Part shown: in pieces, positions 18,674 through 63,974 of the stretch
Layout of the letters: every line of letters begins with the position of its first letter
Position numbering within the stretch: the stretch's first letter is position 1
Assembly (NCBI GenBank): GCA_963771075.1
Contig: CAVYSE010000018.1
Span: 32,001 to 96,000 of the forward strand
Direction of reading: 5' to 3'
From: a candidate division FCPU426 bacterium
GTDB taxonomy: Bacteria > Oederibacteriota > Muellerivitia > Muellerivitales > Muellerivitaceae
DNA: 64,000 nt
Translations under genes and position numbers: made by a program
Notes under the pieces: generated by a model
Told to the model about the DNA's origin: nothing
What the model saw: only the letters and a program-made list of their open reading frames with translations
Database searches by the model: none

Positions 18674-18945
18674 GGGGGGTACCTGCCTCGAACCCACAAG
18701 GTGAGAGGGAAGGTTTGGTGATCCCCATTGCTACTGCAATGGGGGGTACCTGCCTCGAACCCACAAGGTGAGAGGGAAGGTTTGGTGATCCCCATTGCTA
18801 CTGCAATGGGGGGTACCTGCCTCGAACCCACAAGGTGAGAGGGAAGGTTTGGTGATCCCCATTGCTACTGCAATGGGGGTACCTGCCTCGAACCCACAAG
18901 GTGAGAGGCAAGGTTTGGTGATCCCCATTGCAGTAGCAATGGGGG
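18674..18945. repeat. Tandem array of four ~67-bp units each ending in a REP-like palindrome
   Basis: Units start 18674, 18741, 18808, 18875; near-identical; palindrome CCCCATTGCTACTGCAATGGGG. Confidence 0.95.
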
Positions 18946-31596: not shown

Positions 31597-32162
31597 GTCC
31601 GGATGATAATTGGGTCCTCAAGGATGACCATCTGCTTTCGGCCTTGATGAATAAGTTCCACTAGGCGAAAATGAAGAACAGAAAAGTGAGGATTCCTTAT
31701 TTTTTATAAGTTTGGCCCCCTGTTTAAAAGGGACTTTCGTCAAAACCACTAGTTGAGACGAGAGGTTCCATGATTTCTATCGCCCTTGGCCGCGCAAATG
31801 GCCGACGTGTAGGTGTTCCGCGCCTATTGATAAAGAGGCTTGGCGCAAAAATGAGACTGCCGAAAGTAGGGCGAGTAGTGAGCGACCATAAGGAGTCGAA
31901 TCATTGAAGTCGGCGAGGATGGAAGGTCGAAAAATGGATAATGTTGGCCTGACCCTTTTTTCTCACGGGGCGCTGAAGAAGATCGCTTCCCTCAAGCACA
32001 ATAAACGCGAGATGAATTCCAAGATCGTCTCATTGTTGCCCGACCATGCCTCTTCCACGAGGCTTCATGCCGAGAGGTATGTCTTGGGTGTATTGGCGCC
32101 AATGCCAAAGGGCTTAGTTCCAGCTTCCTGCGCAGGCGACACGAAAAGGGAAAATAGACAAA

Positions 32163-50548: not shown

Positions 50549-50983
50549 AACAATGGGGTCAAGTCTTCATTTTATAGTAACTATTCCAACCGCTTCTTCC
50601 TGCGCTAATGTTGTAAAATGGGCCATCGCGTATCCATTGTTCACGAGGTGGGCTAAAAGCACAAACACCTGGATGTGCCCAAATACCAGAAACAGGCAAT
50701 TAAATTGAAACCGGAAGAGGTACTGGCGAAAGTAGCTAAAATCCATGGGGAAAAGTCGGGTGAGATATTGAAGGCTGGAAAAAGGGAGTCGGAAGCACGG
50801 GACGCGGCCATTTATTTGATGAAACGGAAATCGGGGATGAGTTCAATGGAAATTGGGGAAAAGATGGGCGTGGGTGCCAGCGCGGTGGGGAATCGGATAG
50901 CGATGGTAAAGAAGCGGATGGAGGGAGAGACACGGTTCAAGGCTCGGATAGATAATATAAAATGAAGACTTGACCCCATTGTT
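50549..50983. mobile_element. 435-bp mini-element with 28-bp perfect terminal inverted repeats, copy 1
   Basis: AACAATGGGGTCAAGTCTTCATTTTATA at both ends, inverted; identical copy at 63540-63974. Confidence 0.92.
50675..50965 (+). CDS. DnaA-C-terminal-like HTH fragment
   Basis: EARDAAIYLM..SGMS..EIG..MG..SAV pattern, seen at the C-terminus of some Y1/RAYT-like transposases; stop lies inside the right TIR. Confidence 0.65.
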   Translation: MPKYQKQAIKLKPEEVLAKVAKIHGEKSGEILKAGKRESEARDAAIYLMKRKSGMSSMEIGEKMGVGASAVGNRIAMVKKRMEGETRFKARIDNIK

Positions 50984-51541: not shown

Positions 51542-52864
51542 ACAGACCATTGGCTTGGTACATTCAAAGCTTGTTCCTCGACTTGATGTCTCGGAACAGA
51601 AGTATCAGGCCACCTTTTCAAAGAAGTCCGTGATGGATCGATGGGATAAGGGACTTCAAGCGTTGATCGGCTGACATTTGTTGGGCGAATTATTCCTCGC
51701 CAACCCCTTTGGAAAACTTTTTCCCTCCCGGATGCGTTTTTTTCTTGAAGGCCCGGCTTCCTCCGGTTTATTTTCACATCAATTGAAAGGGTACCCGATG
51801 ACTTGTGGTCATCGGGCTAGGGGAGAACCCAAGACAGCACTTGGCGGATAACTGTTAGCTTATCGCTAACGGCTACCAGCAAACCGCTAATGGCTATATT
51901 TGGAGGTTCCCCCATGGAATCAGCACAATCACCCGTTGGTCCTTCGGACCAGATGCCCTATCCCCTCAACCAAATCGTGATGGTTCCCATCGACGACCTG
52001 TGCGACCCGCCTTGGGACCCCCGGCCCGTCGTGGATGAGGGTCCCCTCCAGCTTCTCGTGGACTATATCGCTGGGGAAGGTTACACCCCTCCCATCCTGG
52101 CTTGGGTGGGGGATGGCCGAAAACCCTGGCCGGTGCTTTCCGGCAAACGCCGCCGATTGGCAAATCAACGGTTGGGGAAAACCGAAATCGCGACGATCTT
52201 CTTGGATTGCTCCGAAGAACGGGCAAAAGACCTGACTCAATCCACCAACGAGGACGATAAGCCCTATTGGCTGGGTTCTTGTATCCAAACCGAAACCAGG
52301 TTAGCGGAATTTGGTGAAAATTATGAGATCCTTGGAAAACGGATTGGAAAGACAAAATCCTGGGTTTCGAGAGCGATTTCGTTAACGAAATTACTTAGCA
52401 ATACTTCTCGGAAGATGATTTTCGACCAATATTTAAACGCAGTTGCGAATCGCAACTCAGTTCCAAAAAAAGAAGAAAATCAGGAAACGATCAGCGTAAA
52501 AAAGGGAAGAAAGGCGCAAAAAGAGGAAAATTTAGACGACAAACAATGGTTTTTGTTGGAATCGGTCGCTCTTGAATTATTGCCCCTTTTTAGGGGCCGG
52601 CCGGTGATAGAAGCCGTCCGGCTCGCCGATCAGGTGGTACCTGTCGTTCTTTCCCAAGAATTGGACGCGAAGGGCGTCGCCAAATTGGTTGGTATGTTGA
52701 ACAAGGGCCACGAGATATCCGACTTTATGGAACTCAACCTGAAGGGACCTGCGAAATCCCAATCCGGGGGCGCCACGGCAAAGGTTCATCATGCCGAGGG
52801 GGCTGATCCCGGTAATGGATCAGCACACCCAAAGAGTGACCCTCGGCTTGAGGCCTCGGGTCAG
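51542..52864 (+). repeat. 1.32-kb direct duplication, partner at 62213-63535
   Basis: Constant offset 10671 bp; about 8 substitutions by eye. Confidence 0.95.
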
Positions 52865-55438
52865 GGGGCTGATCCTGGTAAGGGATCAGCACACCCAAAG
52901 AGTGACCCTCGGCTTGAGGCCTCGGGCCAGGGGGCTGATCCGCCAATTGAATCAGCACACCCAAAGAGTATGGCTCAGATTGAGGCTGAGCCACAGGGGG
53001 CTGGCCCTGAGGTGATTGTGGAGGAAGTCAAGAAGCCCACCTTAACCTTTTTTCAAAGGCTGAAATTATTCTGGCAGGGCATCCTCCAAGCATTTCGGAA
53101 CTTGCGGCAACCGCCTCCCGGGGAAACATCCCCCGCGAAATCGGACCCAACGAATCATGGTTCCGGTACAGGCGACCCTCCCAACGGGACCCAACCTGGA
53201 CCCACGGCCCAGGGGGCCGATTCTAGTATTGAATCGGCACTCCCCAAGAGTGGGCCGCAGCATGTGGCCGCGGCCCAGGGGGCCGATTCTAGTATTGAAT
53301 CGGCACTCCCCAAGAGTGGGCCGCAGCATGTGGCCGCGGCCCAGGGGGCCGATTCTAGTATTGAATCGGCACTCCCCAAGAGTGGGCCGCAGCATGTGGC
53401 CGCGGCCCAGGGGGCCGATTCTAGTATTGAATCGGCACTCCCCAAGAGTGGGCCGCAGCATGTGGCCACGGCCCAGGGGGCCGATTCTAGTATTGAATCG
53501 GCACTCCCCAAGAGTGGGCCGCAGCATGTGGCCACGGCCCAGGGGGTAAGACCAAGGGCTTCGCTAAAGGCTAATAGCCAACCGCCAAAGACTGTCTTTT
53601 CCGATTTTCTGGCTGACTTGGCCGAGGTCTTCCAAGGCTTTACCGCCGCCGGGGTGAAGGACTTTTTAGGCAAAATACCTGAGAACAAGTGGCAGGCCGT
53701 AGGTTATATCCTCGAAAAGGGCCTAAAAGGCGGGATCAAGTGCCTGGGGCATCTGCTTGTGGTGCTTGTGAAACATTTCTTTAAGCTGACGGGAAAGGGC
53801 ATCCACAACATCTCCAAATCCGTGGCCGCATGGGTCATGCCCATTCATTCCAGTAGCGGGTCCAGGTCCCACGGCACCCGAACCGGCCAGAATCCCCTCT
53901 TATATTTAGGCCACTGGGTGGTCTATGGGTTCATCACCTTGGCTTGCTATTCGATCGTGCTGGGGTCCATCGCGAACTTTATTCCGGTCATCGGACCCTG
54001 GATAAGGTCCGGGGAATGGACCTTCCTCCATCTTTTGCCCCAGGTGCCCCTTTGGCTGTTGGGTAAGATTTTACAACATCTTTGGATCTCCTTGGGTCTG
54101 TGGCTCATGCTTCTTTGGATGATCCACCGGGCCTTCAAGCCGGGTTTGGGGTGGCTCATCACTTTGTTTGTTCTTTTTCTCGCCGCCTGGCATTTCAAGG
54201 GTTGGGTGATGGATCAGTTACACCTTGATTTGCCGGCCTTCGAACCCAAGACGTCGGCCGCGGCCCAGGTCTCTGGCCCGAAGTCACAAACTGAGGGCGT
54301 CGGTTCTTCTTTAGAACCGACACACCCAAACCGTGGGCCTAATCTTGAAGATTCGGCCCAGGGGCATGATTTGAGAATACCCATTACCGAAAAAGGAATG
54401 GGTACCCCTCCACCTTTGTCGGCCCTTTCAGCCCCGCCGCCCACGGCGATTGTTTCCTCCCCACCCCCATCGGCGAAACCTAAACCTGCCGCAAAACTTA
54501 AGACCCCGCCTAAAAAGGTCTTAGTTGAAAGCCAAAGCGCAACACTTAAAACCGAGAACTCGGTCGCTCCCGTGGCTCTCCCCGGCGCACCCGCCACGGG
54601 GGAAGAGGCGGCGTGGGTGGCCGAGCTCATCCCCGCTTTTCACACGCCCTTCCTGGTGAAGCCTTTGGATCTTCAGCCTGACCCAACCATTTCCCCCGTC
54701 ATGGTCCAGAAAAGGCTTTCCGAAATCCAGGACCCCGAAAGGTTCCGCGTTTACGTGGGGCATGACCGCCAAACGATTAAATCCATGAACGTGGACGATG
54801 GCGGAATGGACCTATTCTTCAACGGCTCCTTCGGCGGGCTTTTGGGCGACTCATCCAGCTTTCGGTTCTTCTGGGAAGACGTGCAGGGCATCCGCCTGGC
54901 GACGGTGGAGGTTTCGGGCGACAAGCCGCAAACGCTTTGCTTTTGCGCGCTGGAAGTGAAGACCAAGAAAAAAATGGCGGCCTTCGAATGCGCGCCGGGG
55001 GACGTGGCCCATTTGGTGTCGGCCCTGGCGGCGCAGTTCAAAAGCTCCACGAAAAGGGAGGTATCGGTGGCGCCCCTGCCTTACCTGAACCAGGGTATGT
55101 GGCTGGGCGGGCAGAACCAGGTGGATGGGATGTGGAAGGAAAGCCCTGCGGGGCGGTCGCAAGAGGTGAAACTGCGCTTTACCCCGGCGGACTGGAAAAG
55201 GCCCACGACCGGCGGCGGAATCCGCCTGGGGGATTACCTTTGGAGCCTGGGCGTGAACCAGGATAACCAAACCGGGAAGGAAGAATTGCTCAGGCAGTTG
55301 GGCGGAACGGCCTCGGGACCGTCGACCCTTTTCGTGGTGGGCCCGGACGATTGGCGCAAGGCCCAGAATGCCGAGACCGGCCCCGAAAACGACCCCTTCA
55401 ACCCGCCCCGCAGGGCGGTGCGCCTGCCGGCGCCGTGA
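51890..55438 (+). CDS. ParB/Spo0J-like N-domain + HTH, 22-aa repeats, TM cluster, unknown C-terminal domain
   Basis: VPIDDL..PR..L..L...I...G...PI..SGKRRRLA; IGKTKSWVSR HTH; several hydrophobic helices in the C-terminal half. Confidence 0.75.
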   Translation: MAIFGGSPMESAQSPVGPSDQMPYPLNQIVMVPIDDLCDPPWDPRPVVDEGPLQLLVDYIAGEGYTPPILAWVGDGRKPWPVLSGKRRRLANQRLGKTEIATIFLDCSEERAKDLTQSTNEDDKPYWLGSCIQTETRLAEFGENYEILGKRIGKTKSWVSRAISLTKLLSNTSRKMIFDQYLNAVANRNSVPKKEENQETISVKKGRKAQKEENLDDKQWFLLESVALELLPLFRGRPVIEAVRLADQVVPVVLSQELDAKGVAKLVGMLNKGHEISDFMELNLKGPAKSQSGGATAKVHHAEGADPGNGSAHPKSDPRLEASGQGADPGKGSAHPKSDPRLEASGQGADPPIESAHPKSMAQIEAEPQGAGPEVIVEEVKKPTLTFFQRLKLFWQGILQAFRNLRQPPPGETSPAKSDPTNHGSGTGDPPNGTQPGPTAQGADSSIESALPKSGPQHVAAAQGADSSIESALPKSGPQHVAAAQGADSSIESALPKSGPQHVAAAQGADSSIESALPKSGPQHVATAQGADSSIESALPKSGPQHVATAQGVRPRASLKANSQPPKTVFSDFLADLAEVFQGFTAAGVKDFLGKIPENKWQAVGYILEKGLKGGIKCLGHLLVVLVKHFFKLTGKGIHNISKSVAAWVMPIHSSSGSRSHGTRTGQNPLLYLGHWVVYGFITLACYSIVLGSIANFIPVIGPWIRSGEWTFLHLLPQVPLWLLGKILQHLWISLGLWLMLLWMIHRAFKPGLGWLITLFVLFLAAWHFKGWVMDQLHLDLPAFEPKTSAAAQVSGPKSQTEGVGSSLEPTHPNRGPNLEDSAQGHDLRIPITEKGMGTPPPLSALSAPPPTAIVSSPPPSAKPKPAAKLKTPPKKVLVESQSATLKTENSVAPVALPGAPATGEEAAWVAELIPAFHTPFLVKPLDLQPDPTISPVMVQKRLSEIQDPERFRVYVGHDRQTIKSMNVDDGGMDLFFNGSFGGLLGDSSSFRFFWEDVQGIRLATVEVSGDKPQTLCFCALEVKTKKKMAAFECAPGDVAHLVSALAAQFKSSTKREVSVAPLPYLNQGMWLGGQNQVDGMWKESPAGRSQEVKLRFTPADWKRPTTGGGIRLGDYLWSLGVNQDNQTGKEELLRQLGGTASGPSTLFVVGPDDWRKAQNAETGPENDPFNPPRRAVRLPAP
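52798..53541 (+). repeat. In-frame 66-bp double-hairpin repeats (3 + 5 units; solo unit at about 54295-54360)
   Basis: Units start 52798, 52864, 52930 and 53212, 53278, 53344, 53410, 53476. Confidence 0.92.
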
Positions 55439-55604
55439 GGATTTCCGGGGCCAGGCCTCCAATTTCCATTTTTGGGGCCCCGGCCCGGAGGGGTGCTGTC
55501 AGGCAAGACGCATCGAAGCCCCCGTCGAAACCATCGGTATTGTCACAAGATGAGCGATTGGGTGTATAATCGGAAAGTAGGAATAAGTAGGAAAGTGAGA
55601 AAAT

Positions 55605-55865
55605 ATGGCATCCGTTCGAATCCGTGAAAAAGGCCAAATGACCCTGCCGAATTCCCTTCGGCGGGAAATGGGTTGGAGTTCCGAATATTTCGTCAATGCC
55701 GTCAAGGTGGGGGATTCGGTCCTGTTGATCCCCAAACCCGTCGTGGGGGACGCTCTCGCCCGCAAGGCGGCCCGGACCATGAAAACCCAGGGAATCACCC
55801 TCAGGGACCTATTGGGTGAACTGAAAAAAGCCAGGAAAGATTACTCCAAAAAAGATGCCCGCTAA
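55605..55865 (+). CDS. AbrB/MazE/SpoVT-family antitoxin
   Basis: IREKGQMTLP..LRR.MG. Confidence 0.88.
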   Translation: MASVRIREKGQMTLPNSLRREMGWSSEYFVNAVKVGDSVLLIPKPVVGDALARKAARTMKTQGITLRDLLGELKKARKDYSKKDAR

Positions 55866-56301
55866 CCGGTTTTTGAGGGTTTTCCTCGACGCCAGCGTTT
55901 GGGTGGCAGGGATCGTTTCCGAGAAGGGCGCCGCGCGGGAAATTCTCCGCTTGACGGAGGCGGGTCTTTTGGAAGTGACAGTATCAGAACAGGTGATCGT
56001 GGAGTTGGACCGTGTGATGAACGCGAAATTTCCGGAGCTTGTGCCGGAGGTACGTGGGTTTCTCAAGGCGGTCCGGCCCCGGGCGGTGGATGATCCGACG
56101 GAACAGGAAATCCGGGCCTTTCGGAGTGTCCTGGAGGCGGGGGATGCAAGCATCCTCGCGGCGGCGGAACGGGAAAAAGTGGATTACCTGGTGACCTGGG
56201 ACCGAAATGATTTTCTTAAGGGAAACGCGCAAAAACTATCTAAATGCCGGATCACCGACCCGGGTGATTTTTTAAGGGCTTTCCGGGAATACATAGGGTA
56301 A
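55855..56301 (+). CDS. PIN-domain (VapC-like) toxin
   Basis: VFLDASV, D..ILAAA, YLVTWD..DF; overlaps the antitoxin. Confidence 0.88.
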   Translation: MPANRFLRVFLDASVWVAGIVSEKGAAREILRLTEAGLLEVTVSEQVIVELDRVMNAKFPELVPEVRGFLKAVRPRAVDDPTEQEIRAFRSVLEAGDASILAAAEREKVDYLVTWDRNDFLKGNAQKLSKCRITDPGDFLRAFREYIG

Positions 56302-56530
56302 ATGACCAACCTGAAGGGATCAGATTTCAAGCGACGCGGGGGAGTATCTGAAAATAGGGAATTAGCCCAGGGCCCTTTTGGGTCACTCACTTAACACCCT
56401 TTTCACCGCCAAGAACGCCAAGAACACCTAAATGGGAATCGATGGGCGGTGATAAAAATACGCGTGGAAAAAGACCGGCGATTGGAGAAGATGGTCCATA
56501 AGTGTCAAGTGTTGTCCTGACCCCATTTTC

Positions 56531-57670: not shown

Positions 57671-58822
57671 ATGTATCTCCATCGGTTACTGGAAAAGACA
57701 CTGTCCCAGGTCCAAAAAGCATTCCCCGCCGTTGTCCTGACTGGCCCCCGGCAGTCGGGGAAGAGCACTCTTTTACGCCATTTCCTGGCGGCCCGGAAAC
57801 CCACGATCCTTTCGCTGGAGGACCCGCGGACCCGTTCACTCATCGCGGAAGACCCCTTGACCTACCTCCGACGGCTTCCCAAACCGGCGGTATTGGATGA
57901 GATCCAGTATTACCCGGACATCACGGTTTACGTGAAAATGATCGTGGATGCCGACCGGAAACCCGGCCAATGGTTCTTGACGGGCTCCCAGCAGTTCACC
58001 CTGATGCGCCACGTATCCGAGTCGATGGCCGGCCGGGCCGCCATCTTGACCCTTCCCCCGATCCAAATGGGGGAACGGAAAAAGACACCCAACTTGGAGG
58101 GCTTTATGGCGGGTCCCAGCTACCCGCAACCCCTGCTTGCCCCCAAAAAACATGCCGCCCTTTGGTATTCTTCCTACCTCCAGACTTACCTGGAGCGGGA
58201 CATCCGAACCCAGCTCGCCGTCTCGGATTTGCGGGATTTCGAGAAATTGATCAGGCTTCTCGCGGCCCGGACGGCCCAGGTGCTCGATTACACATCCCTG
58301 GCGGGGCCCTTGGGCTTGAGCGTGCCCACCGTTAAAAGATGGGTTTCGGCGCTCTCGGCCGGTTACATCATCCACTTGCTCCAGCCCTATTACGAGAATT
58401 TCGGAAAACGCATCATCAAGGCCCCCAAGATTTACTTTTACGATCCCGGTTTGCCGGCTTATTTGCTCCGGCTGGACCAGGGCCCCCCTGTCCAGCATGG
58501 GCCCATGGCGGGAGCCCTATTCGAAAACGCGGTGGTCTCCGAAATGCTGAAGGCCGGATGGGCGAAAGGGACACAGCCGGAGTTCTATTATTGGCACTCC
58601 CAAGGCGGGATGGAGGTGGACCTGCTCGTTCCCGGCCAGGGCGGATACGACCCGGTCGAAATCAAGCTGGCGTCCCGGTTGAAGGCGGACCATGCCCGTA
58701 ACCTGAAATACTGGCTGGAACTTTCCGGGCGAAAAAATGCGGTGGGGACTCTGGTCACCGATTCCAAAGAGGAATTTCCGGGCGCCAAAATCCGGAACAT
58801 GCATTGGGAAAATCTGTTATAG
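57671..58822 (+). CDS. AAA ATPase (AAA_14 + DUF4143 type)
   Basis: GPRQSGKST, LDEIQ, LTGS, ESMAGR, YLERD, KIYFYDPG, EVDL..EIK. Confidence 0.9.
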   Translation: MYLHRLLEKTLSQVQKAFPAVVLTGPRQSGKSTLLRHFLAARKPTILSLEDPRTRSLIAEDPLTYLRRLPKPAVLDEIQYYPDITVYVKMIVDADRKPGQWFLTGSQQFTLMRHVSESMAGRAAILTLPPIQMGERKKTPNLEGFMAGPSYPQPLLAPKKHAALWYSSYLQTYLERDIRTQLAVSDLRDFEKLIRLLAARTAQVLDYTSLAGPLGLSVPTVKRWVSALSAGYIIHLLQPYYENFGKRIIKAPKIYFYDPGLPAYLLRLDQGPPVQHGPMAGALFENAVVSEMLKAGWAKGTQPEFYYWHSQGGMEVDLLVPGQGGYDPVEIKLASRLKADHARNLKYWLELSGRKNAVGTLVTDSKEEFPGAKIRNMHWENLL

Positions 58823-58869
58823 GGGTCACCTATGAAAAAGAATGTCCAGGCAAAAGCGTAGTATCACGG

Positions 58870-59017
58870 CCCCAAGTCCAACCTGAGTCTCAAAGGACTA
58901 CAAGTCAGTCACCTATTCGCGGTTGTTTCACCGCACGATAACGTTGGACCCGGCCGCTCAATCAGGCCAAGGACCTCAACTCTTGCGGGTTGTGTCAGAC
59001 CCCGTCGGAGCTGGCCG
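58870..59017 (-). ncRNA. Predicted bridge/seek RNA of the IS110 element
   Basis: Two stem-bounded internal loops carrying matches to both strands of the target (GGGGTC, GGCCTGA) and of the donor junction (GTTATC, ATAGGTGA); transcript ends unknown. Confidence 0.7.
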
Positions 59018-60017
59018 GGCAGTCCTCAAAAGCTTCCTTCTTTCGTAACATATGAAAGATGCTTTTCAGCATAGCCCTTGCTACTGCTATTCGTCCCGCG
59101 TTATTCCCATGCTTCTTCTTCACCCTCGTGTATAAGGTCCCATACCGTCGGGTTTTGCGAATGGCATGAAGCGAGTTCTCAACCAATATCCAGCGAATCC
59201 ATTTAGAACCCTGTTTGGTGATGTGGCCGTTGTGGCTTTTTCCCCCTGATGCGTGAACACTGGGGACCAATCCACCATAAGAACATAGATGTTCCGCGTC
59301 CGGGAACCGGCGAATATCCCCAATCTCGCTCAAAATTAATAAAGCCGAAAAGGCACCCACGCCTGGCATGGTCATCATCAGCTGGGCTTCCGGGCTTTCT
59401 GCTGCCATTTTCTTGATCACCTCTTCTGATTTGGCGATCTCTTGGCCTAGTTCCCGGATTACTTCCATATATCCGTCCAGTTCCAAACGGTAGCAAGGCC
59501 GGGTACCTACCGTGGCAAGTTCGCGGAAGTTCTTTATTCCGAATCGGTTTTTAGTAACGGGTTCGATTCCCGCCTTGGTCATGACCGAAGTCATCCGGTT
59601 TTTGGCTTGTGTTCTCAATTGCACCAGGGAAGCCCGGTACCTAAGGATTTCCCGTAAGTCGCGGATCTCTCGGGGTGGCACATAGGCTCGTGGCAGCAGA
59701 TCCACCCGCAAAAGTTGAGCCAGGATTCCCGAATCAATTTTATCCGTCTTGATCTTGGCCGAGGCTATGGCTTTGACCTTTTGGGGGTGGGCCAATACCA
59801 GGTTGGGGAATCGATCCTCGATGAGTTCGTAAAAGTGATACCAATGACCTGTGGCTTCTACTACGACCTGGCTACTCACGGGTTGCTTCTTGAAATAAGC
59901 CTTTAAAGTATCCGCGTCGTTCTTCAGATCGACTTGTTCCAGCACCTTTCCTTTCTCATTCACTCTCGTGACGTAGGATGTTTTCTGGTGTAGGTCTACT
60001 CCGATATACTGTCCCAC
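58995..60017 (-). CDS. IS110-family DEDD recombinase
   Basis: GVDLH, VEATG, KTDKID, PGVG, GLVP...SGG; GGAGG RBS. Confidence 0.95.
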   Translation of the reverse strand: MGQYIGVDLHQKTSYVTRVNEKGKVLEQVDLKNDADTLKAYFKKQPVSSQVVVEATGHWYHFYELIEDRFPNLVLAHPQKVKAIASAKIKTDKIDSGILAQLLRVDLLPRAYVPPREIRDLREILRYRASLVQLRTQAKNRMTSVMTKAGIEPVTKNRFGIKNFRELATVGTRPCYRLELDGYMEVIRELGQEIAKSEEVIKKMAAESPEAQLMMTMPGVGAFSALLILSEIGDIRRFPDAEHLCSYGGLVPSVHASGGKSHNGHITKQGSKWIRWILVENSLHAIRKTRRYGTLYTRVKKKHGNNAGRIAVARAMLKSIFHMLRKKEAFEDCPASSDGV

Positions 60018-60396
60018 GGCTGCACCTCCTAAGCGTTTTGCACCACCTGCAAAGGTGAGTGCCTTTTCGACTCTGGGTTTATCCTAGAGCCTCGTCCCAC
60101 TTAAGTGGAGACGCTCTACGCTTGGAGCTCTGCAGCCTTTTTCATGTTATCAGGCTACCATTTTCCATTTTTCAAACCCGGCTCCGGCTGGGCCATGGGG
60201 AGCCCGAACCCAGGCAGAGGCTTCTATTGATTGTCGCTTGATGGGACCAAGTCCCCGACGCTCTTTGACGGGAGAACTCAAAACTTAATCTCCCTGTTAC
60301 CTAATCTAAAAGCCGAAAACATCCGGTCATGCAGGCGGGCATCATGTTGGATTGTGAATAGGGCTATAATACGGGAAACACCGAAGGAGGCGTCCC

Positions 60397-60627
60397 TTGA
60401 CCTGGCAAGATCGAATCATTATTAATCCTGAAGTCATGGTAGGAAAACCCATTGTTAAGGGTACCCGGATTACGGTTGAGTTCATTTTCGGCTTATTGGC
60501 CCAAGGGTGGAAAACCGATGAAATCCTCAAGAATTATCCTGGCATTGAACGTGAGGATATCCAGGCTTGCCTGATTTACGCGAGTGATGTTTTGCGCGCC
60601 GAAAAAGTTTATCCCCTTCCCGTATAA
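60397..60627 (+). CDS. DUF433 antitoxin
   Basis: GKPIVKGTRITV..EIL.NYP....DI.ACL.YA; AAGGAGG RBS and TATAAT upstream. Confidence 0.92.
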   Translation: MTWQDRIIINPEVMVGKPIVKGTRITVEFIFGLLAQGWKTDEILKNYPGIEREDIQACLIYASDVLRAEKVYPLPV

Positions 60628-60629
60628 AT

Positions 60630-60818
60630 ATGCGTTTTTTAGCTGATGAGAATTTTCCCGGTTCTGTTGTCGAAACCCTGAGGTTTGAAGGGCATGATGT
60701 TTTTTGGGCCAGGGTGGATTCCCCGGGGACAAAGGACAGGAGCCTCCTTTCCCGCGCGGAGGATGAGGGCCGGATCCTTTGGCCTGATGATGTCGCGCCT
60801 GATTCTTGTATGGAATAG
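60630..60818 (+). pseudogene. DUF5615 PIN-like toxin, truncated
   Basis: MRFLADEN..L...GHDV..EGRIL then an abrupt switch to WPDDVA; the expected TxDKDF motif is absent. Confidence 0.8.
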
Positions 60819-62560: not shown

Positions 62561-63535
62561 ATGGCTATATTTGGAGGTTCCCCCATGGAATCAGCACAAT
62601 CACCCGTTGGTCCTTCGGACCAAATGCCCTATCCCCTCAACCAAATCGTGATGGTTCCCATCGACGACCTGTGCGACCCGCCTTGGGACCCCCGGCCCGT
62701 CGTGGATGAGGGTCCCCTCCAGCTTCTCGTGGACTATATCGCTGGGGAAGGTTACACCCCTCCCATCCTGGCTTGGGTGGGGAATGGCCGAAAACCCTGG
62801 CCGGTGCTTTCCGGCAAACGCCGCCGATTGGCAAATCAGCGGTTGGGGAAAACCGAAATCGCGACGATCTTCTTGGATTGCTCCGAAGAACGGGCAAAAG
62901 ACCTCACTCAATCCACCAACGAGGACGATAAGCCCTACTGGCTGGGTTCTTGTATCCAAACCGAAACCAGGTTAGCGGAATTTGGTGAAAACTATGAGAT
63001 CCTTGGAAAACGGATTGGAAAGACAAAATTCTGGGTTTCGAGAGCGATTTCGTTAACGAAATTACTTAGCAATACTTCTCGGAAGATGATTTTCGACCAA
63101 TATTTAAACGCAGTTGCGAATCGCAACTCAGTTCCAAAAAAAGAAGAAAATCAGGAAACGATCAGCGTAAAAAAGGGAAGAAAGGCGCAAAAAGAGGAAA
63201 ATTTAGACGACAAACAATGGTTTTTGTTGGAATCGGTCGCTCTTGAATTATTGCCCCTTTTTAGGGGCCGGCCGGTGATAGAAGCCGTCCGGCTCGCCGA
63301 TCAGGTGGTACCTGTCGTTCTTTCCCAAGAATTGGACGCGAAGGGCGTCGCCAAATTGGTTGGTATGTTGAACAAGGGCCACGAGATATCCGACTTTATG
63401 GAACTCAACCTGAAGGGACCTGCGAAATCCCAATCCGGGGGCGCCACGGCAAAGGTTCATCATGCCGAGGGGGCTGATCCCGGTAATGGATCAGCACACC
63501 CAAAGAGTGACCCTCGGCTTGAGGCCTCGGGTCAG
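62561..63535 (+). pseudogene. Truncated duplicate of the ParB-like gene
   Basis: Near-identical to 51890-52864; cut by mini-element copy 2. Confidence 0.88.
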
Positions 63536-63539
63536 CAGC

Positions 63540-63974
63540 AACAATGGGGTCAAGTCTTCATTTTATAGTAACTATTCCAACCGCTTCTTCCTGCGCTAAT
63601 GTTGTAAAATGGGCCATCGCGTATCCATTGTTCACGAGGTGGGCTAAAAGCACAAACACCTGGATGTGCCCAAATACCAGAAACAGGCAATTAAATTGAA
63701 ACCGGAAGAGGTACTGGCGAAAGTAGCTAAAATCCATGGGGAAAAGTCGGGTGAGATATTGAAGGCTGGAAAAAGGGAGTCGGAAGCACGGGACGCGGCC
63801 ATTTATTTGATGAAACGGAAATCGGGGATGAGTTCAATGGAAATTGGGGAAAAGATGGGCGTGGGTGCCAGCGCGGTGGGGAATCGGATAGCGATGGTAA
63901 AGAAGCGGATGGAGGGAGAGACACGGTTCAAGGCTCGGATAGATAATATAAAATGAAGACTTGACCCCATTGTT
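63540..63974. mobile_element. 435-bp mini-element, copy 2 (HTH ORF at 63666-63956)
   Basis: Identical to 50549-50983, offset 12991. Confidence 0.92.

Follow-up and report, generated by a model that had tools for sequence, protein, structure and literature searches.

A multicopy IS1111-type insertion sequence with a predicted right-end bridge RNA that is likely directed at the terminal inverted repeats of TIRtrons

IS4321 and IS5075, in work ascribed to Partridge and Hall in 2003, reportedly target Tn21-family elements at their terminal inverted repeats. Targeting of the inverted repeats of another element is established behaviour among IS1111 members, and its mechanism is already known. In the available portions of the literature, IS1111 elements are defined by subterminal repeats whose distance from the left end is 7 nt and from the right end 3 nt, their guides are ordered with the top-strand match 5' of the bottom-strand match, and one member, ISPa11, inserts at REPs (PMC11187229). 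Right-end bridge RNAs have been predicted family-wide in IS1111 (PMC11208160), while in IS621 handshake guides match the target bases present after strand exchange (PMC11208158), a pairing described as also affecting excision (PMC13626964). The TIRtrons (TIRYT) are a separate class of mobile element, with the consensus end GGGGWSAS (PMC3733652; 10.1101/279083).

The window studied here (the whole analysed stretch of 64,000 nucleotides) contains on its minus strand an IS1111-type bridge-recombinase element (Table 1). The source genome holds seven complete copies with 0 differences over 1327 bases and with flanks that differ from copy to copy, along with a rearranged partial copy on C18, 44 bp of the right end on C6 and, on C1, a diverged 58-bp stretch. 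Its recombinase scores 238 bits with NF033542 (cut-off 140) and has the IS110-family layout of an N-terminal DEDD RuvC domain and a C-terminal PF02371 domain with the catalytic serine. Both its length and its serine motif agree with the IS1111 group (330-350 aa, GL-P----S(t)G), and an alignment of 50 homologues shows no variation at D8, E54, D92, D95 or S257. The best plasmid matches are unnamed IS110-family proteins at 41%, and the match to IS621 is weak (E = 1.8e-9 over residues 190-316). The genome additionally carries two copies of a second, distant IS110-family element (27% identity; G000:C9:2073-3068 and C5:85818-86813).

The non-coding ends measure 166 nt on the right and 133 nt on the left, with the conserved structure located downstream of the recombinase gene, and the sequence ATGAAAAAG forms a perfect 9-bp inverted repeat close to both ends. 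Judged by sequence, the element shows every IS1111 feature that was tested. A sequence-only reading of this DNA had placed a TCA core at the two ends. TCA does border both, but in 9/34 homologue clusters the two junctions have different bases after the TG of the gene strand, so that the shared core is the 2-nt TG (CA at 58827-58828 and 60151-60152 on the other strand) and a three-base core is ruled out. Insertion is site-specific, all seven complete copies lying around the TG core in one orientation relative to the target, and the AAA_14/DUF4143 gene beside the window copy remains intact. Upon joining of the ends, a -35-like hexamer (5/6) and a -10-like hexamer (4/6) would be separated by a 17-nt spacer; this predicted promoter is equalled in score in 27/34 homologue clusters at 16-18 nt spacing, and a sigma-70 promoter search of the linear element found none.

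Table 1. Coordinates, in the window, of the element, its predicted RNA and guides, and the target-related features.
Feature	Position	Strand	Basis
IS1111-type element including both 2-nt TG cores	58827..60152	-	7 identical complete copies with different flanks; core size from homologue clusters
340-aa DEDD bridge recombinase (D8, E54, D92, D95; S257 in GLVPSVHASG)	58995..60017	-	PF01548 + PF02371
Core of predicted bridge RNA, target loop preceding donor loop; overlaps last gene codons	58904..59018	-	22 pairs, 41 sequences
Predicted 5' target guide GGGGTC, complementary to top strand right of core	58998..59003	-	covaries with right flanks
Predicted 3' target guide GGCC-TG + handshake-like AT	58961..58968	-	covaries with left flanks
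Predicted 5' donor guide GTTATC, complementary to left-end tip	58937..58942	-	135/170 positions vs 91 permuted
Predicted 3' donor guide ATAGG-TG + handshake-like AC	58908..58916	-	donor 122/123; handshake dinucleotide vs target 76/82
3' strand of alternative long-range helix with 58943-58949	58876..58882	-	single-sequence fold; at least 5 bp in 15/41 sequences
Right subterminal inverted repeat ATGAAAAAG, 3 nt inside core	58832..58840	+	sequence
Left subterminal inverted repeat ATGAAAAAG, 7 nt from outer core edge	60137..60145	-	sequence
-35-like hexamer of predicted circle-junction promoter	58843..58848	-	17-nt spacing after end joining; 27/34 clusters alike
-10-like hexamer of predicted circle-junction promoter	60144..60149	-	same prediction, ends joined
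Right half of split target (GGGGT), touching stop codon of AAA_14/DUF4143 gene 57671-58822	58822..58826	+	sequence + domain match
Left half of split target + AT-rich interior; weak TIRtron-end likeness	60153..60174	+	12/18 bases, P = 0.057
Mini-TIRtron reduced by internal deletion to its HTH part; GGGGTCAAG ends; empty, with two mismatches to guide	50549..50983	.	sequence
Second mini-TIRtron copy, GGGGTCAAG ends, two mismatches, empty; 96-aa DnaA_C-like ORF 63666-63956	63540..63974	.	sequence + profile
3' remnant + TIR of second TIRtron family; empty site, one mismatch to guide	56434..56524	.	sequence

Homologues were collected by an alignment-based search, used after a single-protein scan of the genome contigs had given 36 candidates of which none was confirmed; a search for relatives at E <= 1e-60 found a match in 1/60 other genomes. 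From 547 confirmed genome loci we retained 80, and another 80 from 571 metagenome loci (160 in all). Guide regions could be parsed in 75 of the 160 (at least 42% identity) and, together with this element, formed 43 clusters at 90% RNA identity, 41 of which entered the RNA helix test, two poorly aligned clusters being left out. Across these 41 sequences four helices comprising 22 pairs are paired in 92.6% of cells, and 18 of the pairs show changes on both sides. No shuffle out of 500 reached this level, and slid controls were 30-43% paired. RNAalifold predicts the same four helices, with target and donor loops parallel in layout. The 5' target guide overlaps the last two codons of the recombinase gene, and the U of the stop codon lies opposite the core T, a position occupied by A in most relatives, which is a point against the bridge-RNA reading. 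An Rfam search gave no match beyond a 15-nt, 13.6-bit chance match.

Both stems of the earlier reading form in the predicted fold. The first, GGCCAGCTC/GAGCGGCC, has pair probabilities of 0.64-1.0. The second, GTCCAAC/GTTGGAC, reaches 0.42-0.91, but the homologue alignment rules it out as the conserved closure of the donor loop, which is instead formed by GTC (58949-58947) with GAC (58906-58904). A comparable helix of at least 5 bp is found in 15/41 sequences against 8.0 in shuffles, and on this comparison GTCCAAC/GTTGGAC appears to be a partly conserved alternative pairing; our guess is that such a long-range helix could be a closed precursor form of the RNA. In the fold of the element's sequence taken alone the two donor guides pair with each other, and the stability of the guide region folded in this way is no better than that of shuffles (z = -1.0). 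RNA-library run X1 contained 0.06 of the words and gave contigs only. This library contains a 151-nt, depth-3 contig from a close relative (3 differences) over 58887-59037, which possibly stems from DNA and gives no strand, ends or level, and a second contig covering 59800-60167 to which the same limits of strand, ends, level and possible DNA origin apply. These contigs are a weak hint of bridge RNA expression.

The four guide motifs quoted in the earlier reading are present on the minus strand at the positions it gave, and GGGGTC, matching the top strand, lies 5' of GGCCTG, matching the bottom strand, as is the order in IS1111. Read from the RNA alone, the target is GGCC-TG-ACCCC, which 2/7 copy sites match with 0 mismatches and 5/7 with one. 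All seven complete copies therefore lie within one mismatch of the guide-implied target and do not sit in unrelated sequences; the window site itself reads AGCC, the one mismatch that had been claimed for it. Covariation between guides and flanks was evaluated per cluster against 20000 permutations, none of which reached the observed value for the left target, right target, left donor or handshake. The left-target guide matches its own flank at 121/140 positions (n = 35 clusters; 61 when permuted) and the right-target guide at 155/180 (n = 36 clusters; permuted 135), the latter count including two mis-parsed rows as they stand, with five rows unparsed and L111 dropped for a mis-called end. For the donor, the left guide matches at 122/123 positions (n = 41; permuted 106) and the right guide, at fixed columns, at 135/170 (n = 34; permuted 91). 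The donor-guide bases following TG, which are AC, TC or GC, match the first two target bases in 76/82 cases against 65 permuted; the corresponding test for the target loop is uninformative because all left ends begin AT and there is no variance. Since relatives are not independent, we also took 15 disjoint pairs with different guides from a tree of the 55/61 loci having a left flank, and here the cognate target did better than the swapped one in 12/15 and never worse, with 3 ties (p = 2.4e-4). Guides have changed in nature, with 18 distinct left-arm guides among 76 parsed loci.

The covariation expected by the sequence-only reading is thus found for target and donor guides alike, and its proposal of a bispecific RNA in the right end of an IS1111-type element holds, as a prediction from aligned sequences, both genome-wide and among homologues, with four covarying helices and two guided loops. 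It might alternatively be argued, along the lines of the seekRNA model, that a short processed RNA guides through its target loop only, the protein reading the subterminal repeats and the donor matches being a by-product: RNAs of 82-96 nt with target matches are described for IS1111 members in the available part of PMC11187229, many relatives match imperfectly at the right donor, and folding of the single sequence pairs the donor guides together. However, the donor guides covary with each element's own ends, the donor loop has covarying helices of its own and its handshake dinucleotide changes with the target, and we regard this alternative as improbable.

The repeats targeted by the predicted guide flank Y1 transposases of 311-317 aa, which are located inside GGGGTCAG inverted repeats, and these terminal inverted repeats (TIRs) fit GGGGWSAS. 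Among three of the Y1 proteins tested, PF01797 is found in 3/3, PF08299 in 2/3 (one above cut-off) and NF047646 above cut-off in 2/3. Genes with Y1_Tnp and Bac_DnaA_C domains within such repeats identify the targeted family, at the level of sequence, as TIRtrons (TIRYT, TnpA_Y1 subclass 2.1). A tblastn search recovered 37 Y1-like loci or remnants of several families genome-wide. Some Y1 loci recur as near-identical copies, which suggests mobility of TIRtrons in the source genome. Short tandem duplications starting with GACCCC often occur beyond the outer TIR end (C19, C26, C6, L013, L130), and family-A TIR ends bracket an unrelated 600-aa ORF (C21:55181-57714), suggesting a cargo-carrying TIRtron derivative. 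A fourth TIRtron family has GGGGTCAGTCAT ends, and the 44-bp right-end remnant (C6:2793-2836) lies past its downstream TIR.

Five of the eight left junctions adjoin a Y1 match, in every case at the downstream repeat, and 7/8 are TIR-like (the C11 junction resembles a TIR at 13/18 interior bases, P = 0.011), as would be expected if the element is aimed at the terminal repeat of another mobile family, the claim of the earlier reading. That reading had looked for this family in the same window. TIRtron ends are indeed present there, but the element's own site is weakly TIR-like, with no Y1 match within 150 nt (the 12/18 interior bases compared with Y1-flanking TIRs are assessed by a shuffle P), and the mini-elements of the window have two mismatches and are empty. 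Of the GGGGTCAGG matches in the window, 5/6 are Thr/Pro-type low-complexity repeats at 4.9-5.6 kb and not element ends. We rejected the raw genome count of GGGGTCAGG (163) as evidence, many of the matches being repeats of this type. Solo TIR-like ends with one guide mismatch occur in the window at 31928-31958 and about 55445-55475, and resemble the occupied flank at 18 and 17 of 22 bases respectively. Other features of the window include a 1182-aa ORF with 66-nt repeats and no Pfam match (51890-55438), whose truncated duplicate (62561-63568) ends at the second mini-TIRtron, each copy being near a mini-TIRtron; PIN-type or DUF433/DUF5615 toxin-antitoxin-like gene pairs adjoining TIR ends or IS sites (55605-56301 and 60388-60800, and also in the C3 and C21 flanks); and a tandem array of four 67-nt repeats in which every unit contains a 22-nt palindrome (18674-18945).

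Empty sites give a measure of how far the guide itself points at TIRtrons. Of 168 empty near-matches (at most 1 mismatch), 31 adjoin Y1 matches, against 0.66% of all TG sites, a share reached by 0/251 rearranged guides (best 11%). Occupied sites are TIR-richer than all empty matches (7/8 vs 43/168, p = 0.0007), and no preference beyond the guide emerged when they were compared with empty non-coding matches under a crude ORF mask (32/49, p = 0.41). Recognition beyond the guide is therefore unnecessary, and the guide together with selection against intragenic insertions is enough to explain the positions of the copies. That a TIRYT protein, AT-rich interior DNA or TIR DNA structure has to recruit the complex in addition to base pairing we consider very improbable. 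As such recruitment would have it, the empty sites include seven exact matches, five of the occupied sites have one mismatch, and 6/7 complete-copy sites have at least 75% A+T upstream; yet five of the seven empty exact matches fall inside the ORF mask, where insertion would be selected against, the non-coding comparison shows no excess, and the C21 site lacks that context.

The orientation towards TIRtron ends appears to extend to the clade. The right targets of 41 homologue clusters fit GGGGWSA exactly in 25 cases and within one mismatch in 36, the few clusters that left the motif include L107, L121 and L137 with matching guide changes, and the GGGGW guide arm persists in relatives whose protein identity ranges from 94% to 45%. 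Fifteen host genomes were searched, of which 12 gave Y1 matches. In 6/12 of these hosts a site within one mismatch of the element's own guide lies beside a Y1 gene, against 0.22 for shuffled guides, and 4 of the hosts, whose variable arms all differ, have an exact 11-nt guide match in a TIR next to a Y1 gene. Exact matches were obtained for the host's own guide in 4/12 and for other clade guides in 15/126 (p about 0.06), which suggests, from these sequence matches, host-specific tracking of TIR variants by the guide. AGAA-type guides had no match to a Y1-flanking TIR in their two genomes. A Y1 gene is present in only 4/160 homologue loci, whose flanks extend at most 1.6 kb and are in many cases short, and in 3/39 parsed loci having at least 1 kb of left flank, which counts against the TIRtron reading; on that reading most homologues would sit in solo ends. 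A right end of this IS clade also occurs in another genome (L217:1690-1705), about 150 bases upstream of a Y1 gene, and the TGAC guide of L125, an 88%-identical relative, would fit the GGGGTCAGTCAT ends of the fourth TIRtron family.

These counts also bear on the alternative that the element is RNA-guided and has no TIRtron specialisation, its short GC-rich motif simply finding in TIRs the commonest harmless non-coding matches. The lack of enrichment over non-coding matches at occupied sites, the C21 junction, which is an exact guide match outside any TIR, the marginal window site and the lack of a nearby Y1 gene at most homologue loci would all accord with it. Against this, none of the 251 rearranged guides points at Y1-adjacent DNA as this guide does, the GGGGW arm has been retained over the 94% to 45% range of protein identity, and the four hosts with exact matches beside Y1 genes have differing variable arms, so that we judge an unspecialised guide unlikely.

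We consider it very probable, from the comparative sequence evidence, that this is an IS1111-type insertion sequence whose right end encodes a bridge RNA that, by prediction, directs the recombinase to TIRtron terminal repeats of the form GGGGWSA. In the mechanism that we propose, the element would leave as a circle whose junction forms a promoter, as work on IS621 and ISEc11 implies, and the junction transcript would yield an RNA at least about 115 nt long. Base pairing would then join the target loop to the two strands of GGCC-TG-ACCCC and the donor loop to those of the circle junction, strand exchange occurring at TG with the help of two handshake dinucleotides that match the post-insertion junctions. 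Insertion would split the TIR five bases from its outer edge, and across the clade the GGGGW part of the guide would be kept while the other arm varies among TIR variants.

One copy points to a possible further consequence of carrying guides in DNA. Contig C28 carries a full copy and, following it, an exact repeat of that copy's final 136 bases (C28:109624-109759), and at the joint the TG of the right end is succeeded by the sequence that follows TG in the 3' target-guide DNA, which reads GGCC-TG-AT, like a left junction. Recombination at the guide-coding DNA would give such a 136-bp unit, although this is a single case and possibly an assembly error; the other homologue loci fetched contain no 136-bp right-end duplication. 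Precedents, in the available text of each source, are the modular circles of ISPpu9/ssr9 for recombination at secondary sites (PMC12288879), half-match recombination (10.64898/2026.08.31.748434) and tandem partial modules (10.64898/2026.08.14.744561). Unlike in the ISPpu9 and half-match cases, the secondary site at C28 would be the DNA encoding the guide itself. Another rearranged locus, C18:281312-283352, has two partial copies with the same TIRtron flank, inverted and with small indels, and looks like a fold-back chimera near a contig end.

These observations allow a broader scenario, which we put forward tentatively and hold to be possible rather than likely. This widespread IS1111 clade may be a dedicated hyperparasite of TIRtrons, in which the GGGGW arm is fixed, the other arm is re-tuned to the resident TIR variant, the split TIR cripples the host element, and variants such as GGGGTCAAG are escape alleles; the guide-coding DNA, by mimicking the element's own junctions, would lead to self-recombination and the 136-bp right-end units. 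In the test of escape alleles, 0/9 AAG-variant and 4/17 AGG-variant family-A ends were occupied, a difference that is not significant (one-sided p about 0.16).

The locus offers a recently active IS1111-type bridge system whose predicted RNA is fully readable and whose core is TG. One guide arm occurs naturally in at least 18 settings, which makes the system useful to editing as a set of orthologues. It supports by comparison the view that IS1111 RNAs possess, like that of IS621, a donor loop and handshake bases, links bridge recombinases to TIRtrons, which are poorly studied Y1 elements, and makes it testable whether an RNA-guided element tracks the ends of its host element. The main text of PMC3733652, in its available part, has no mention of IS110 or IS1111. 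In six supplementary files of PMC11187229 none of three target or junction motifs was found; in the supplements of PMC11208160, as far as available, the junction motif has 0 matches and two shorter motifs have 13, of which the 6 inspected are alignment or target lists untraced to this clade. In the literature searched, which did not extend to ISfinder or to most subscription papers, no IS110/IS1111 element was found to have TIRtrons as its target; ISfinder possibly catalogues the clade. On the sequence evidence, the TIRtron end would be a target class that we have not found in print.

When compared with known systems, the locus differs from IS4321 and IS5075 in that their host is reportedly the Tn21 family, whereas here it is an HUH/Y1 element. 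It resembles ISEc11, ISKpn4, ISPst6 and ISPa11, as far as these are described in the available text of PMC11187229, in its DEDD transposase of 330-350 aa with the GL-P----SG motif, its subterminal repeats at 7/3 nt, its long downstream non-coding region, its guide order and its predicted junction promoter. Compared by features with these four, it has as its target a TIRtron end and not a REP, an attC or the ISEc11 site; unlike ISEc11-type elements, it has a 9-bp perfect repeat (11/13) and a second, donor-matching loop evident by covariation. The targeted elements are like the TIRtrons of Di Nocera et al. 2013 and Quentin et al. in combining Y1 with a Bac_DnaA_C-like tail in GGGGWSAS repeats, but in the source genome they are multicopy and near-identical, unlike those described in the available parts of PMC3733652 and 10.1101/279083. 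With IS621, on the portions of PMC11208160 and PMC11208158 available, the predicted system shares a target loop and a donor loop, both internal, as well as a core of 2 nt, a target of 11 nt and handshake dinucleotides next to the core-pairing guide; it is set apart by an RNA lying in the right end and overlapping the stop codon, a reversed guide order, a TG rather than a CT core, and long subterminal repeats.
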